Of a DNA stretch of 64,000 nt, positions 51,468-63,959 are shown piece after piece. The stretch lies in assembly GCA_964621595.1 (NCBI GenBank), contig CAZUPO010000002.1:12047-76046 (forward strand), read 5' to 3'. The DNA comes from an uncultured Candidatus Saccharibacteria bacterium. GTDB taxonomy: Bacteria; Patescibacteriota; Minisyncoccia; Phycocordibacterales; UBA5272. The translations under genes and the position numbers were made by a program. Numbering within the stretch: position 1 is the first letter of the stretch; each line of letters opens with the position of its first letter. The notes beneath the pieces were generated by a model. The model was not told where the DNA came from and ran no database searches. It saw only the letters and a list, made by a program, of their open reading frames with translations.

Positions 51468-53477
51468 ATGAAAAACAAAATTATTAAAGCAAACATCGTA
51501 ACCGCAGTCCTTTTCACGGGCATTTTTATGCTTGCTGTTGGAACCGCGTCTGCGCAGTCTGATGGTTTTGGATATAACTACGTAGATGTACCAAGTGGTT
51601 ATAACTATGTAGATACTTCTGACTACGGAACAACGAATGTAAATTCAGGAACAGGCTACAACTATGTAGACACTACTACTGCCCCTTCGACATCGTTTGG
51701 CTACAACTATGTAGATTCTTCATCCCCATCAACAACTTTTGGTTATAACTATGTAGATAGTACAGATAATTCTGGTTATGGAACGACAAATGTCTATACA
51801 AACACACCAACGGTTGGATACACAGGATCATCGTTCCTCAGCGGCTTCGGAGGACTTAGTGGATTTGGATACACTCCTTCCTACTACTCTTCTGGTATTG
51901 GATACACAACATATGGGTATACCAACTACGGATCTAATCCAACAACACAGTGTCCTTCAGGAACCAATTATGTAAATGGTGTATGTCAGCCAAATACACA
52001 GTGTCCTTCTGGTACCAACTATGTAAACGGCGTGTGTGTTCCGACAACACAATGTCCAGCAGGAACAACCTACAGCAATGGATCATGTGTTGTTAACTCA
52101 GTAAGTTGTCCATCAGGAACAACCCTTGTGAACGGAGCGTGTGTTGTAAATACAACCACATGTCCAGCGGGCACAACTCTTGTAAATGGTGTATGTACTA
52201 CAAACATCACTACTTGTCCCGCAGGAACAACTCTCATAAACGGTGTATGTACAACTAATATAATTACTCCTACGTATGTATGTCCAAATGGAACGACAGT
52301 AAACTACTCATACCAGTGTCCTACGACAACATACACATATCAAACATGTTGGGACGGAACAACTATTCCACTTAACTCAGTATGTCCTAATCAGTACAAA
52401 CTTTGTCCAAACGGAACAAGTATCCCTGTTAACCAAACATGTTACTACGGAACAACATACACATACGCTGTTCCTCAAACTATTATCAAGTTCAACAATG
52501 TTGTAACATCTCCTGCAACACAGGTGACAAACAACTCAGGTCGTTGTAACGGTATCGGACTTATCGCAAACGGCGCTGCGTCAACTGGATGGTTCGAATA
52601 CGGAGAAACATCATCTCTTGGTCGCGAAACAGCGCATGCGTCCATCGGCAACAACCACACTGCACCATTCTCTAACCTTCTTACAAACCTCAAGCCAAAT
52701 ACTCGCTACTACTGTCGCGCTGTAATGCAGAATCAGTATGGAGTTGTAAAAGGGGAGATCGTTGGATTCACTACAAAGGGAACAAAAGTTACATACGTAA
52801 CCCCAGTTGTAAAAACAGTTGTTAAAAAGGTTGAAAAGAAGCCAGAAGTAACTTGTACAGACGGCACAACTTCATGGGTAAAGAACGGATCTGCAACGGT
52901 AACCTCTACTGTACAAGGAGATAAGTTGGTAGCACTCACCGTTGATAACACATTCTCTCGTTACGCAGCAGGATCACCAATAACATACAAGATCTCATAC
53001 AAGAATCTATCAGATTCTACTCTCACAGGAGTTCTTGTCTCAGTGGTTCTTCCAGCAGAAATCGAAATTACAAGCGCAAGTGCTGGTACCTACGATGTAA
53101 TGACTCGTACCCTTACAGCGAATGTCGATATTCTCGGAGCACGCAGTGAAGGAACAATCACCATCGAAGGCGTTGTATCAAAAGATGCATCTATCGGTAA
53201 GAGTGTCGTTACAACTGGATACATTGTTTACACCGTACCAAGTACAAAACTTCAAGACGAAGTTACTGCGTATACTGTCGGATCAATCTCCCCAAGTGAT
53301 GCAACTCTCAAGTCAGATACAGGTGCAAAGAAGGTGTACGATCTAGGCGGAAGTGAACGTAGTTTCCTACCAAACACTCTCGTGGAATGGTTAGCACTCA
53401 TCGCAATTGTCTTCATCGTATTCATCCTTGCACGAAGCATTTATCTCTCTTACCAGGGAGATAAAGAAGGACACTAG
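51468..53477 (+). CDS. Large cell-surface repeat protein with C-terminal TM anchor
   Basis: Signal peptide. Six GYNYVD-containing repeats. About eight Cys-bracketed repeats (QCPSGTNYVNGVC / TCPAGTTLVNGVC). C-terminal hydrophobic anchor LALIAIVFIVFILARS. Confidence 0.6.
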   Translation: MKNKIIKANIVTAVLFTGIFMLAVGTASAQSDGFGYNYVDVPSGYNYVDTSDYGTTNVNSGTGYNYVDTTTAPSTSFGYNYVDSSSPSTTFGYNYVDSTDNSGYGTTNVYTNTPTVGYTGSSFLSGFGGLSGFGYTPSYYSSGIGYTTYGYTNYGSNPTTQCPSGTNYVNGVCQPNTQCPSGTNYVNGVCVPTTQCPAGTTYSNGSCVVNSVSCPSGTTLVNGACVVNTTTCPAGTTLVNGVCTTNITTCPAGTTLINGVCTTNIITPTYVCPNGTTVNYSYQCPTTTYTYQTCWDGTTIPLNSVCPNQYKLCPNGTSIPVNQTCYYGTTYTYAVPQTIIKFNNVVTSPATQVTNNSGRCNGIGLIANGAASTGWFEYGETSSLGRETAHASIGNNHTAPFSNLLTNLKPNTRYYCRAVMQNQYGVVKGEIVGFTTKGTKVTYVTPVVKTVVKKVEKKPEVTCTDGTTSWVKNGSATVTSTVQGDKLVALTVDNTFSRYAAGSPITYKISYKNLSDSTLTGVLVSVVLPAEIEITSASAGTYDVMTRTLTANVDILGARSEGTITIEGVVSKDASIGKSVVTTGYIVYTVPSTKLQDEVTAYTVGSISPSDATLKSDTGAKKVYDLGGSERSFLPNTLVEWLALIAIVFIVFILARSIYLSYQGDKEGH

Positions 53478-57019: not shown

Positions 57020-57616
57020 ATGAAACAACAAGTACTAGTTATTCACGGCGGAACCGCATTCGCTTCCTATGAGCAGTATCTAGACTATCTTACAAAGAAG
57101 GAGATAACCCTCGAGAGACTTCTTTCTAAGGGGTGGAAAGAAATGCTACAAGAGAAACTGGGTAGCGACTATCAGGTCTTTACTCCAACCATGCCCAACG
57201 GTAGTAATGTTCATTACATAGAGTGGAAGATAATGTTCGAAAAAATATTACCCCTCCTCGATGACAGCCTTATCCTCATAGGACACTCCCTCGGAGGAAT
57301 ATTTTTAATGAAATATCTTTCAGAAAACACAACTACAAAAACCATCACGAAACTTATTGTAGTTGCGCCACCATTTGATAACGCTTCCGGTGAAGACTTG
57401 CAAGAATTTGCTTTGAACAAAGAAGTACTTCGTACTTTGCATACAAGGGTAGGGAAAATCGTACTGTATCAGAGCAAGGATGATGTTGTTGTCCCGCCAG
57501 AGAATGCAGAGCACTACAAAGACTTCATTGAAGGGCTAGAATTAAAGATGTTTGAAGATAGGGGGCATTTCACCACAGAAAACTTTCCAGAAATTGTGGA
57601 AGAGGTGAAGGGGTAG
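57020..57616 (+). CDS. Alpha/beta-hydrolase family serine hydrolase (YdeN/RBBP9-like)
   Basis: VLVIHGG...GHSLGG nucleophile elbow. C-terminal His-containing segment. Confidence 0.6.
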   Translation: MKQQVLVIHGGTAFASYEQYLDYLTKKEITLERLLSKGWKEMLQEKLGSDYQVFTPTMPNGSNVHYIEWKIMFEKILPLLDDSLILIGHSLGGIFLMKYLSENTTTKTITKLIVVAPPFDNASGEDLQEFALNKEVLRTLHTRVGKIVLYQSKDDVVVPPENAEHYKDFIEGLELKMFEDRGHFTTENFPEIVEEVKG

Positions 57617-57631
57617 GAAACACTTTACATA

Positions 57632-58300
57632 TTATCTTTTTTCAACTACTTCAACCCGAGAAGGATTACGAAGGATACGAATAAATTTATACTTAAAACG
57701 ACCAGTGAGGTGTTTTATTACTTGTTTTGCAACCCAAGAGGGATCGAGCATTGTAGACGCCCCTCGTGGACTTTTTTCCCAAAACCTAGTATTCATTCCA
57801 GCTGGCCCAGCAACAAGAACCTTCCCAAGGCGATCATCTAGTGATAAAGAGTTAGATAACATACCCAGCCCTGCTTTTACAGCAGTGTATACAGGTTCAA
57901 GTAGACGAGGGGTCCACTGAGATGTTGATGTAACGGCAATGAAGTTATCAAGAGACCTTTGTTTAGTGAGAATTTTTTTAATAAGTAGTATTGGAGCAAG
58001 AAGTCCAACATGAATCATTGCATCCACATCATCTCTACGCAGATCAGTCAGCGTTCCTTCTTGATAAAATCCCGCAGCGTAAACAAGGATATCTATATGG
58101 GGGAGTTTTGTGACGAGGGAGGAAATATCTTTTTCTACCGTTTTCTTATCAAGATTAATTTTAAAAAATATACAAACTTTACTGCGCGGATCACGTCTTC
58201 CAGTAATAAAAACACGATGTGTTTTTGCTAAAAGTAAAGCAATCTCAAGACCGAGTCCAGAACTTCCGCCAACAATAAGAGCAACTTGTTCCTTCTTCAT
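57632..58300 (-). CDS. Short-chain dehydrogenase/reductase (SDR) family oxidoreductase
   Basis: Start taken at MKKEQVALIVGGSSGLGLEIA (TGxxxGxG-type Rossmann motif). YxxxK-like YTAVKAG. Confidence 0.8.
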   Translation of the reverse strand: MKKEQVALIVGGSSGLGLEIALLLAKTHRVFITGRRDPRSKVCIFFKINLDKKTVEKDISSLVTKLPHIDILVYAAGFYQEGTLTDLRRDDVDAMIHVGLLAPILLIKKILTKQRSLDNFIAVTSTSQWTPRLLEPVYTAVKAGLGMLSNSLSLDDRLGKVLVAGPAGMNTRFWEKSPRGASTMLDPSWVAKQVIKHLTGRFKYKFIRILRNPSRVEVVEKR

Positions 58301-58433
58301 TTTTTTATTGTAACAGAAACTACTAATTCTCCAAAAAATACAGTGTTTTACTGTTGTGTGTAATGAAAACACTCATTAAACTAGCATTCTAAATCAAATT
58401 GAAGAGATTTCTCTTTAGTTTTTGTTTTACCGT

Positions 58434-58454
58434 TGTGCCCCCAGCAGGAATCGG
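58434..58454. repeat. 21-bp direct repeat identical to the 3' end of tRNA-Lys (59175..59195); candidate att-site remnant
   Basis: TTGTGCCCCCAGCAGGAATCG is identical at both sites. The flanking sequence does not fold into a tRNA. Confidence 0.6.
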
Positions 58455-58575
58455 TCACAAATCTGCCTCGTCGCTGACTTCTCGAAGCAGATTCGCGACC
58501 CCGTTCGAGTATGAAGCCCTCAGTTCAATTAATATAAAAAGAAAGAGCGCTGATTAAGCGCTCCACCAACTCGAG

Positions 58576-58965
58576 TCATGGGACTGAGTTGACAATTTTT
58601 TCTGGGACACTGAAGAATAAGATTACCCATCTAAGTGGGTTAATGTCTTCCAGGTATTCTCGATGTACCCAGTCGTTGTACGTATATGTCTCAGGCATTG
58701 GCCTACGTCGCACCAGATCTGTGTGCACCGGAGCAACCATACCATTTTCACGGCGTCCTTTGAACGTTCGTATGTTGCGCATTCTGAGCCAATTCTTGTA
58801 CCTTCTGCGCCTATAGGATTTTGTGGTGAATACGTAGTACAATTTTAATCCAAATGGCTCAAGAATGAAGTAAACCAAAGGGGAAGTTACAAGTCCGAGT
58901 GTCCCGGCAAAAAAATAGACGATGAAAAACACCACAAGATTAAACCTGTTCATGCTTTGCTCCAA
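58576..58965 (-). CDS. Hypothetical small membrane protein with Arg-rich tail, inside the repeat-bounded segment
   Basis: 129-aa ORF. Two hydrophobic helices, then an RRRRYKNWLRMRN basic region. Confidence 0.3.
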   Translation of the reverse strand: MEQSMNRFNLVVFFIVYFFAGTLGLVTSPLVYFILEPFGLKLYYVFTTKSYRRRRYKNWLRMRNIRTFKGRRENGMVAPVHTDLVRRRPMPETYTYNDWVHREYLEDINPLRWVILFFSVPEKIVNSVP

Positions 58966-59177
58966 TCAAAAAACAAGTTAATATATATTAACACTATTAA
59001 AACATCTTGTCAACTATCTGTGGGGTGAATTCAACCCTCAAGTATAACAATATTTCCTCTTAGAATTGTTCCAACTTCATACCAAACCCTCAGAGCCGAA
59101 GACTTGTATTCGATTACTGACAAAAGCCAAGCAGTTAGTTTTTTCTGTTTGCACATAATTTGTTGCACAAATTTTTG

Positions 59178-59250
59178 TGCCCCCAGCAGGAATCGAACCT
59201 GCGACCGTTTGCTTAAAAGGCAACTGCTCTACCGACTGAGCTATAGGGGC
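59178..59250 (-). tRNA. tRNA-Lys (anticodon UUU)
   Basis: rc gives GCCCCTATAGCTCAGTCGGTAGAGCAGTTGCCTTTTAAGCAAACGGTCGCAGGTTCGATTCCTGCTGGGGGCA. 7-bp acceptor, D-arm GCTC/GAGC, anticodon loop CUUUUAA, T-arm GCAGG-TTCGATT-CCTGC. Confidence 0.85.
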
Positions 59251-60467: not shown

Positions 60468-60590
60468 AGGTATCTTGTAGAGTATAGAAAAAGATAGAAA
60501 TTCGCAATGGTTACATTTATCACACTTTCTGGTAGTATGGTACCTGAATCCCAGTATTTTAGGGAAAAACCAGTCAACCGAGGAGATACC

Positions 60591-61268
60591 ATGAAACACG
60601 TCGGAGGCGGCGAGCGGCGCCGCAACAGAAAGATCACGGCGCAGATCCGCCGCGCGATCAAGAACGGCTTCACGTACTACGCAAGGACGGTGTGCGGGCG
60701 CCCGCGAAGAATCCCGAGCGAAGTAACCGCACCTGCGAATCCTGCACCGGTGGCAAAGGTCGCGGAGGAAGACAATTCCTACCTCCAGATCAAGCTTGCG
60801 GATATCCGGGTGGGCGCCGAGCTCTACAGTTGGGAACTGCTTCGGATGTCTGCGGCAGGGATCAACACGCTCGGGGATCTCTATGCGGTCGGCTTCTCTG
60901 GTTTCCTCGCAACACCGAATCTCGAGAAGGGGACCATTCTGAAGATCGGCGGGTGGTTGCGGGTAAACCGGTACCCGATGATTCCCGAGATGGGAAATGG
61001 GTTACGGTTGGAATTCACGAAGTTCAGCGTCACGCCGGTGACCAGTCTTCCCCTTCGGCAGATGACGATGAATTCCTTCGAGCGGGCTAGCATCAGGACA
61101 CTCGGGGAGGTCTATCGTCTGGGCTTCTCGGGGCTGAAGCACGTCCTCGGTCGCCATGGATTTGGTGCCAAGAGGAAGGAAGACATCATCCAGGCGCTCC
61201 AGAACATCGGGGCTCCGCCGCTCAACGAGATGGGCCACAACGAAGACTGGGCTCCGAAAGGAGGATAG
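60591..61268 (+). CDS. GC-rich protein with two tandem RNA polymerase alpha C-terminal-domain (alphaCTD)-like helix-hairpin-helix modules
   Basis: SD GAGGAGA before ATG 60591. Repeats AAGINTLGDLYAVGFSGFLATPNLEKGTILKIGGWL and RASIRTLGEVYRLGFSGLKHVLGRHGFGAKRKEDIIQALQNIG resemble alphaCTD (ANCLKAEAIHYIGDL...[20 protein letters not shown]). Basic N-terminus. Confidence 0.55.
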   Translation: MKHVGGGERRRNRKITAQIRRAIKNGFTYYARTVCGRPRRIPSEVTAPANPAPVAKVAEEDNSYLQIKLADIRVGAELYSWELLRMSAAGINTLGDLYAVGFSGFLATPNLEKGTILKIGGWLRVNRYPMIPEMGNGLRLEFTKFSVTPVTSLPLRQMTMNSFERASIRTLGEVYRLGFSGLKHVLGRHGFGAKRKEDIIQALQNIGAPPLNEMGHNEDWAPKGG

Positions 61269-63744: not shown

Positions 63745-63840
63745 AATGGAACCGCCTCTCGCATTGCTATGCTCGAGACCCGCACTCGCTCTTCGCGAGT
63801 TGCGGCCCTTGGTTCGATTCCTTCCTCAATCAGTCCAGTA
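63745..63840 (+). other. Possible small structured RNA or tRNA-derived fragment carrying a T-loop-like GGTTCGATTCC motif
   Basis: Long bulged hairpin CCGCACTCGC...GCGAGTTGCGG at 63781-63807. GGTTCGATTCC at 63811-63821 without pairing T-stem or acceptor. Followed by the strong terminator at 63846. Confidence 0.2.
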
Positions 63841-63845
63841 AAAAT

Positions 63846-63886
63846 AAAGTAGTCCTCCGAATTTTGGAGGACTACTTTATTTTTAT
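63846..63886. terminator. Bidirectional rho-independent terminator
   Basis: AAAGTAGTCCTCC-GAATTTT-GGAGGACTACTTT, 13-bp stem, flanked by T-runs on both strands. Ends the minus-strand tRNA-Arg transcript and any + strand RNA upstream. Confidence 0.7.
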
Positions 63887-63887
63887 G

Positions 63888-63959
63888 TGCTCTCGGCAGG
63901 AATCGAACCTACATCGCAAGTACCGCAAACTCGCATTCTATCCATTGAACTACGAGAGC
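63888..63959 (-). tRNA. tRNA-Arg (anticodon GCG as read from the fold)
   Basis: rc gives GCTCTCGTAGTTCAATGGATAGAATGCGAGTTTGCGGTACTTGCGATGTAGGTTCGATTCCTGCCGAGAGCA. 7-bp acceptor GCTCTCG/CGAGAGC, anticodon stem CGAGT/ACTTG, loop UUGCGGU, T-loop TTCGATT. Confidence 0.7.

Follow-up and report, generated by a model that had tools for sequence, protein, structure and literature searches.

A 21-nt tRNA-Lys repeat in a Candidatus Saccharibacteria genome as the probable end of a tRNA-flank module that holds a one-gene cassette

The stretch of DNA analyzed here (the window) comprises 64,000 nt from an uncultured Candidatus Saccharibacteria bacterium (contig CAZUPO010000002.1, positions 12,047 to 76,046), in which the 3' end of an intact tRNA-Lys(UUU) gene is repeated downstream of that gene, with one small open reading frame (ORF), termed ORF125, between the two copies. 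An earlier note, made from the sequence alone, had taken the repeat for the remnant att site of a decayed integrative element. We consider it probable (roughly 0.6) that the 21-nt repeat forms the direct repeat at the end of a non-coding module found across the lineage, and that a small mobile cassette has been inserted inside this module. The features of the locus are listed in the orientation of the tRNA, followed by a second module elsewhere in the window.

59177-59250, minus strand: tRNA-Lys(UUU), intact and contiguous (ARAGORN; Rfam RF00005, 73.2 bits at 59178-59250)
59175-59195, minus strand: direct-repeat copy 2, reading CGATTCCTGCTGGGGGCACAA on the tRNA strand (exact-match search)
59106-59176, minus strand: 5' half of the module, with a palindrome remnant GCACAAAAATTTGTGC, a degenerate inverted acceptor copy, the small hairpin hp1 aaaactaaCTGCttggctttt and the arm cagtaatcgaatac
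59094-59105, minus strand: junction linker aagtcttcggct, joining the bulge (…TCGAATAC) to the cassette
59056-59093, minus strand: boundary motif CTGAGGGTTTGGTATGAAGTTGGAACAATTCTAAGAGG, reading CTGAGGGTTTGGTATGAAGTTGGAAC…, the attP-derived P' arm (motif-profile match, E=1.9e-8)
59087-59093, minus strand: first CTGAGGG, the start of the boundary motif and presumed crossover core
58985-59013, minus strand: cassette promoter, TTGACA-17-TAATAT with a TG extension (promoter scan)
58576-58953, minus strand: ORF125, 125 aa, or 129 aa from an upstream TTG (ORF list)
58544-58564, minus strand: cassette intrinsic terminator, GGAGCGCTTAATCAGCGCTCT followed by a T-run (terminator scan)
58517-58523, minus strand: second CTGAGGG, closing the cassette; a 7-nt direct repeat, 570 nt from 59087-59093
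58503-58516, minus strand: cttcatactcgaac, which together with CTGAGGG is the antisense of a tRNA-Gln-like 3' end, GTTCGAGTATGAAGCCCTCAG; presumed pseudo-attB half-site
58454-58502, minus strand: module core, GGGGTCGCGAA + variable hairpin + TTTGTGAC, with an 18-bp stem (module-profile nhmmer, E=3.8e-15)
58433-58453, minus strand: direct-repeat copy 1, the displaced tRNA-Lys 3' end that closes the module (exact-match search; position as in every complete module)
63760-63885, minus strand: second module, of another core class (class 2) and partly decayed, behind tRNA-Arg(GCG) at 63887-63959

The window contains just two exact copies of the repeated sequence, TTGTGCCCCCAGCAGGAATCG, one at 58433-58453 and the other at 59175-59195 (exact-match search), with a spacing of 742 nt and the displaced copy downstream of tRNA-Lys; no extra copy with up to three mismatches was present in the 64 kb. 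Copy 2 takes in the final 19 nt of tRNA-Lys, beginning at T-loop position C56, together with 2 nt of trailer. The duplication reported earlier is thus real and exact, although its first copy had been placed one nucleotide off (58434-58454) and the trailer of its second, correctly located copy had been counted as 3 nt. None of 100 dinucleotide-preserving shuffles held a match (chance expectation 0). The two-copy arrangement was found in 10 of 11 contigs from JGI and Logan assemblies that carry the ORF and repeat pattern, and because these 10 contigs were assembled independently and have the same layout, the arrangement is not an assembly artefact. Six Logan contigs (L013-L016, L019, L002), all independent short-read assemblies, end inside tRNA-Lys (~59205-59217). 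These breaks probably reflect a graph branch at tRNA sequence common to members of the community and could hide strain variants of what follows the tRNA.

No second tRNA, tmRNA, intron or other Rfam family was detected over the first copy (ARAGORN, Rfam). Readings of that copy as part of a tmRNA, a second tRNA or an intron-containing tRNA, the last of which the earlier note had raised, were rejected, tRNA-Lys being contiguous and complete; in Patescibacteria, the tRNA introns known so far belong to group I, interrupt the anticodon loop at position 35/36 and have no relation to the repeat (PMC13011429). The statement that only a 129-aa ORF and no integrase lie between the copies held up: no integrase or integrase fragment was found among the ORFs of 58454-59174 (Pfam, PHROGs), and tblastn with a recombinase of the serine family described below gave no match in the whole window. 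The search for integrase fragments that had been proposed for 58455-59174 accordingly returned nothing.

About 50 nt beside the first copy (ACGGGGTCGCGAATCTGC…GCAGATTTGTGAC) recur at another locus (L007; fetched loci are given as L numbers) and at several tRNA-Gln loci. A search with the core pattern, whose consensus is GGGGTCGCGAA + covarying hairpin + TTTGTGAC, returned 20 metagenome loci, ~17 of them genuine, and these define a ~160-nt non-coding unit (the module) that lies 3' of many Patescibacteria tRNA genes. In tRNA orientation, the tRNA leads into a long palindrome/terminator, in many cases perfect, whose start lies within the acceptor 3' strand. A small hairpin comes next, then an arm with the reverse-complement sequence of the T-loop and T-stem 3' strand of the module's own tRNA, and then the conserved bulge TCGAATACGG. 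The module closes with a long hairpin (GGTCGCGAA…/…TTTGTGACC), which shows covariation in its upper part, and the direct copy of the tRNA 3' end. This copy starts at T-loop C56 and runs for 10-33 nt, sometimes into the locus-specific trailer (33 nt in L178), and the spacing from T-loop to copy is 139-167 nt in normal modules. Modules stand behind at least 10 tRNA species (Met, Val, Arg, Asp, Leu, Glu, Gln, Trp, Lys and Cys), sometimes behind several tRNAs of one genome or in tandem, and their neighbours are housekeeping genes. Among the 56 tRNAs in the fetched Patescibacteria loci, 18 had a direct 3'-end copy (>=10 nt) within 260 nt downstream and 18 an inverted one; upstream of the tRNAs, direct or inverted 3'-end copies were found at 0/56. 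A local template switch, which would give a direct-inverted-direct triplication, was rejected as the origin of the module because the small hairpin and the core are common to unrelated loci.

In an alignment of 26 module instances, 94.7% of the cells of the consensus structure were paired, compared to 81% in shuffles (0/500 reach the observed value), and pairing fell to 33-49% once the partners were slid. Double-sided changes numbered 70 where 18.8 were expected. Two G·U pairs never vary, and the inner stem, a part not derived from the tRNA, contains six pairs that covary. The earlier note had allowed that the repeat might belong to a conserved structural RNA or element in relatives, and this proved partly so, in that the repeat is part of a conserved, covarying structure. 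No Rfam 15 family matched the module in the window or in five module loci, where only the tRNAs matched, and no description of the module or of the boundary motif was found in the literature by topic or by exact sequence string.

The window carries both halves of such a module, set apart by the ORF125 cassette, whose presence lengthens the spacing between the repeat copies to 742 nt. The core (fold of -36.2 kcal/mol, z=-2.9) is directly followed by the tRNA copy from C56 (58502-58433), as in class-1 modules. The 5' half aligns with the hp1 and arm of complete modules from 12 other loci, and its arm cagtaatcgaatac fits the expected gcaggaatcgaat at 11 of 13 positions. This hairpin and arm lie 603 nt from the core, and the cassette sits exactly between the 'tcgaat' and 'cgggg' of the module bulge. 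Removal of the 570 nt between the CTGAGGG copies leaves a 172-nt unit, close to the normal 139-167, with ~33 extra nt kept. The linker aagtcttcggct appears to resemble the AGTCGGAG… insert of the variant modules L181, L190 and L193. In the module behind tRNA-Arg(GCG), a terminator palindrome of 23 bp is followed by the T-arm copy GGAAGGAATCGAACC in inverted orientation, then by a hairpin and …AGAGGCGGTTCC (inverted-repeat list, sequence).

Orthologous sites were examined in four relatives (L198-L201), located through Fpg homologues at ~75% identity. These share the order rpsT-RuvA-Mur ligase-x-Fpg-small ORF-tRNA-Lys-[variable genes]-PolA, with tRNA-Lys at the same syntenic position after Fpg. 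In L199 the tRNA runs directly into the flank aaacgtgctagcacgag, that is, an empty site; in L198 and L200 this flank is displaced by ~150 nt and preceded by a partial direct copy of the tRNA end. The insert resembles a module in both, its core being of a different class in L198 and a class-1 variant in L200; in L201 only a terminator follows. The check for an empty site that had been suggested earlier thus succeeded among relatives, though not within the same species. Because the tRNA-Lys site of relatives is empty or otherwise occupied, five related species having either an empty site or one of three module types, the module is gained and lost in the manner of an insertion by which the tRNA 3' end is duplicated. 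At tRNA-Arg(GCG), orthologues keep the class-2 module in the window (decayed), L198 and L201; the flanks in L198 and L201 retain the direct copy CGATTCCTGCCGAG, and their hairpin has diverged yet is still complementary. Modules are thus both gained or lost and sometimes retained.

ORF125 encodes a protein with a hydrophobic N-terminal helix and an Arg-rich segment, and had no match in Pfam, PHROGs, PADLOC or NCBIfam. Only two homologues were found among 5.8 billion proteins, both divergent (72% and 66% identity) and in unrelated contexts without a tRNA nearby; they are bounded by the boundary motif, not by tRNA-Lys repeats. DNA identity to the homologue loci (78-80%) is confined to the stretch from promoter to terminator (window 58525-59013), and equivalent promoter hexamers upstream of the gene and the terminator after it are kept in both homologue loci (L007 and L008). 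These unrelated contexts, and the restriction of identity to the promoter-terminator span, indicate that the ORF125 gene is a self-contained mobile cassette.

The ORF125 homologue and a module occur together again in L007, in an order different from that of the window. The class-1 core at this locus (1130-1215) has arms for another tRNA (TCGATTCTCCTAGGATGGT), adjoins an IS66-family transposase fragment and lies 650 bp from the homologue.

In L008 the ORF125 homologue is part of an array in which a ~35-nt motif separates every promoter-gene-terminator unit. This boundary motif (26-36 nt) was searched for with a degenerate 26-mer (20 specified bases) in a species-representative genome collection and in viral contigs. 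It was found at 38 loci, all in Patescibacteria metagenome-assembled genomes (MAGs), compared to ~1 expected by chance, and neither the motif nor the module core pattern had a match in the viral contig collection. A scan of viral contigs with the 15-mer GAAGTTGGAACAATT gave single chance matches only and was uninformative. Profile searches resolved same-strand arrays of 2-8 motif copies, 0.2-1.2 kb apart, with flanking sequences unrelated from locus to locus. In ~20 of the 38 loci a tRNA-Gln stands at one array end, on the opposite strand and with its 3' end towards the array. The array genes are assorted accessory genes (SpoU, NUDIX, GNAT, hydrolases, small membrane proteins), and no recombinase lies between them in the loci examined.

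The motif is of coding origin. All 28 motif copies that had not been pre-selected by the scan pattern read, stop-free, as L-(G/R/K)-(L/V/M)-W-(D/Y)-(E/D)-V-(G/R)-T-(F/Y/I)-L, and mismatch was lowest at second codon positions (0.05 vs 0.18 at position 1 and 0.15 at position 3); the copy in the window translates as LRVWYEVGTIL (LRVWYEVGTILRG…). The translation matches the C-terminal tails …LLGVWYEVGTFL, …VWDDIRT… and …LLGYWYDIRTIL of large serine recombinases. Because of this match and the codon-like variation, we identify the motif as the P' arm of attP, a remnant of the C-terminal coding tail of such a recombinase. Other readings were rejected. The motif is merely similar to the 3' end of the local tRNA-Gln, and better conserved than the tRNA, and so is not a copy of it; an integron attC, a Xer/dif-like site, a CRISPR repeat, a sigma-54 promoter and a repetitive extragenic palindromic (REP) element were dismissed because dyad symmetry was lacking or the spacing or copy number did not fit, and finally because of the coding-tail evidence.

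The recombinases themselves belong to a family with 1,620 members (E <= 1e-30) that insert at tRNA 3' ends (Gln, Trp). In L187, a 6-kb element next to tRNA-Gln carries genes for a large serine recombinase (Resolvase + Recombinase + Zn-ribbon) and for a rolling-circle Rep (PF23343), and the order cargo-Rep-recombinase is repeated in L202, L203 and L204. The recombinase gene lies at the tRNA-proximal edge in all four loci and is absent from the window. Its positions are as follows.

L187, 13276-14790: large serine recombinase
L202, 5433-6956 and 10001-11515: large serine recombinases
L203 and L204, 10001-11515/11464: large serine recombinases

Family elements are always paired with the Rep and often carry defence-like cargo (AIPR, Mrr, AbiEii, HNH/SRA). 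In L202-L204, the final ~20 recombinase codons are the antisense of the tRNA (Gln twice, Trp once). Most family members end …LGYKDSNLDTQDQ… or …DSNQD…SYH, in which 'DSN' is T-loop antisense, and a subset have the tails …LLGVWYEVGTFL or …VWDDIRT…; in the tandem pair of L202, the inner recombinase, which adjoins the next element instead of a tRNA, ends …LLGYWYDIRTIL. These endings indicate that the recombinase ORF spans attP, with the crossover in or beside GCTGGGG, the antisense of the tRNA-Gln acceptor end, and that the C-terminal ~10-20 residues switch on integration from a native '…LWDEVGT…' to an antisense-tRNA '…DSN…SYH'. Motif copies within islands are attR-type scars that mark the distal ends of elements (L202, L177, L187), and the elements form islands and arrays of cassettes in the space between the tRNA and the older module. 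Apart from these serine recombinases, present in a minority of loci, no recombinase recurs beside motif arrays or modules.

For the window, we propose that the cassette entered as a small circle, or within a recombinase element that was trimmed later, and that a family recombinase acting in trans would have recombined it into a tRNA-like pseudo-attB (CTGAGGG|CTTCATACTCGAAC) inside the module. The true recombinase/tRNA junction reads CTGGGG|TACAAGGACTCGAACC and is alike at 14 of 22 positions; the window site lies outside any real tRNA. The cassette is inverted relative to tRNA-Lys when compared with the tRNA-Gln arrays, an orientation that integration at this pseudo-attB would explain. The module arms may be kept identical to the adjacent tRNA through gene conversion. 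The cassette model predicts an empty-module junction …aagtcttcggctCTGAGGGcttcatactcgaac… and a circular cassette junction …tattaattgaaCTGAGGGTTTGGTATGAAGTTGGAAC…. As for the module itself, its presence and absence and its multiplicity lead us to regard it, tentatively and at somewhat below even odds, as a miniature non-autonomous insertion.

Several observations weigh against this account of module and cassette. A 7-mer common to both junction windows is expected by chance with p ~0.09, which makes the CTGAGGG repeat weak when taken alone; closure of the cassette at this sequence is argued from its position as well as its identity. The right cassette junction is tRNA-Gln-like, not tRNA-Lys-like, and every fetched contig that spans the interval carries the cassette, so that no same-species strain without it was found. 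Cassettes are without the recombinase-coding left half of attP and may be trimmed remnants, not recombinase substrates. No recombinase is linked in cis to any module, and the module arms match each tRNA, even into the trailer, where a simple cut-and-paste element cannot carry such arms between tRNAs. Finally, the two invariant G·U pairs and the retention at tRNA-Arg across three species fit a functional RNA at least equally well.

It is possible, at clearly less than even odds, that the module represents a new class of structured, protein-less element, or else a new family of tRNA-like RNA genes linked to tRNA genes. As a new element, its core of hairpin and bulge may gain inverted and direct copies of whichever tRNA 3' end it adjoins. 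Additional tRNA-like docking sites would thereby arise, at which serine-recombinase elements and single-gene cassettes gather, and the module may be a recombinase-free 'landing pad' that seeds integron-like arrays in the ultra-small genomes of Patescibacteria.

We think it unlikely that the module is a structured RNA or cis-element of the tRNA transcription unit maintained by the host, with the cassette insertion a separate accident. It could then be a tRNA-like processing or termination signal, or one of an antisense/mimic pair acting on the tRNA 3' end, and its structure would itself require the tRNA-end copy. In favour of this reading are strong covariation in a hairpin that does not derive from the tRNA, the invariant G·U pairs, and the tRNA-Arg module retained in three species with a diverged but paired hairpin. 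Roughly one third to one half of the examined tRNAs have the module, and its predicted fold combines an acceptor-like stem and a side hairpin with an extended T-arm-like stem; both agree with the reading as well. However, L199 and L201 have an empty tRNA-Lys site and the three other species have three module types there, tandem and nested partial copies exist (L157, L195, L196), and the terminator between tRNA and module makes transcription from the tRNA promoter doubtful. The identity that extends into the locus-specific trailer (up to 33 nt, L178) points to copying at the DNA level, and no Rfam family corresponds.

It is quite improbable that the module is the collapsed remnant of a tyrosine-integrase element with its crossover in the T-loop (attL + P' arm, P arm + attR), an 'attP-only' unit that would be cis-mobilisable and whose hairpin and bulge would be arm sites for an integrase or accessory protein. 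The junction is constant at T55|C56, the sublocation typical of one class of tRNA-targeting tyrosine integrases, and both the ~160-nt unit and its 10-33-nt direct repeats would suit an attP, the former falling within the attP size range. Against this, no tyrosine integrase recurs near modules among the 92 + ~400 ORFs scanned or clustered, and no full-length version was found: the only long interval (L187) holds the serine-recombinase element, whose own junction lies elsewhere. One core serving at least 10 tRNA targets would also be unusual for arm sites of integrases that differ in specificity, and the compensatory changes favour structure over sequence-specific protein sites.

Closest to the earlier note, and very improbable in our view, is a single integrative element in tRNA-Lys, with the 21-nt copies as attL and attR and the 720 bp with ORF125 as what remains after deletion of the integrase and everything else in the element. 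A direct repeat of a tRNA 3' end from the T-loop is the classic signature of such insertion, and the recognition that an intact tRNA with a displaced 3'-end copy is of this kind was sound; the site is moreover a variable hotspot, as had been supposed, and ORF125 a mobile gene. However, the same repeat and core occur elsewhere behind many tRNAs with only ~160 nt and no cargo, and both halves of the module are recognisable on either side of ORF125. The boundaries of the ORF belong to another recombination system, with its crossover at the acceptor end and not in the T-loop, and the flanks of its homologues carry the motif. The 21-nt copies are therefore not the att pair of an ORF-bearing element, and the reading as a remnant att site or hotspot was right in spirit and wrong in anatomy. 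Chance similarity or an assembly artefact, for which only the Logan contig breaks inside the tRNA could speak (themselves expected for a conserved tRNA in a mixed community), is negligible given the empty shuffles and the identical layout of 10 independently assembled contigs.

The genes around the module were compared across the same relatives, and those from tRNA-Lys to PolA differ in every one examined. The SDR and alpha/beta-hydrolase genes of the window (57020-58300) occupy this position in none of them; the relatives instead hold GrpB, S9 peptidase, GNAT, DUF5680 or unknowns. The whole interval from tRNA-Lys to PolA is a variable island, not native backbone, and the earlier impression that the SDR gene looks native is doubtful. 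The slot between Mur ligase and Fpg (x in the order above) contains a different gene in every relative (23S_rRNA_IVP or unknowns). The window has at 60507-61268 (plus strand) a 253-aa ORF of 57-62% GC, against a background of ~42%, with a weak RNA_pol_A_CTD match, and it looks like a recent acquisition. In L199 (1135-3316), rpsT-RuvA-Mur ligase forms an inverted duplication that has class-1 module matches in the middle (2109-2342), and no tRNA-Arg was called there; the duplication reflects either faulty assembly or a genuine palindromic rearrangement at the module. Further away, 51468-53477 (plus strand) encodes a 669-aa secreted or anchored protein with GYNYVD and CP(A/S)GTTxxNGxC repeats and a C-terminal transmembrane helix; the equivalent position in the annotation of the JGI contig is a CLIPPER-domain protein.

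Patescibacteria (Candidate Phyla Radiation, CPR) have tiny genomes with few recognised mobile elements, and their exchange of accessory genes is poorly understood. This locus links three pieces of exchange machinery, namely elements that pair a large serine recombinase (LSR) with Rep, arrays of one-gene cassettes, and a module that duplicates tRNA ends. Should the module be mobile or act as a docking element, the variability of Patescibacteria genomes at tRNA flanks would be explained, and GGGGTCGCGAA…TTTGTGAC+CGA and CTGRGGYTNTGGGAYGAAGTTGGAAC would be simple markers for islands in fragmented MAGs; should it be an RNA, it would found a new family of RNAs linked to tRNAs. What is surprising here is the module, for which no counterpart was found in the literature, and the recombinase elements and islands belong to an already known kind.

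Among known systems, cis-mobilizable elements (CIMEs) and elements resembling miniature inverted-repeat transposable elements (MITEs) are short stretches of att- or repeat-flanked DNA without a recombinase, presumed to be mobilised in trans. The arms of the module differ from these in being target-specific, not element-specific, and it is not known to have an autonomous partner. Integrons resemble the cassette arrays in that mostly single-gene cassettes are separated by a conserved site remnant with no recombinase between them, and the paired arms and variable central hairpin of the module superficially recall a folded attC. However, the arrays have no IntI tyrosine recombinase, attI or Pc, and their genes have their own promoters and terminators and lie in either orientation. 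On inspection of the sequence, the boundary motif showed no dyad symmetry and no GTTRRRY/RYYYAAC pair, and no tyrosine recombinase recurs in the array loci. The cassette arrays thus resemble integrons in outcome and fail every defining feature. SSV-type archaeal integrases carry attP within their own ORF, and integration alters the recombinase gene (PMC7253208). The family described here differs in consisting of large serine recombinases that exchange no more than the final ~10-20 codons, for antisense-tRNA codons, and keep an open ORF that is not split.

Islander-type tRNA-targeted islands (with the Williams-type T-loop sublocation) share with the window an intact tRNA followed downstream by a direct copy of its 3' end from the T-loop, an empty site in relatives, and newer insertions between the tRNA and older material. 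Unlike them, the module has no integrase in cis, is gene-free at ~160 nt, and also includes an inverted tRNA-end copy and a covarying hairpin common to at least 10 tRNA targets. Prochlorococcus tycheposons form tRNA-seeded islands in which each new integration moves older elements further out, partial tRNAs and pieces of recombinases lie scattered, the cargo is adaptive or defensive, and a minority of elements use large serine recombinases (bioRxiv 10.1101/2020.12.28.424599). The Patescibacteria elements differ from these in their phylum, in their Rep (PF23343) partner and in having attP inside the recombinase ORF; many junctions in their islands bound single promoter-gene-terminator cassettes, and the module is without a described tycheposon counterpart. 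With these differences, tycheposons are the closest match to the logic by which islands are built here.

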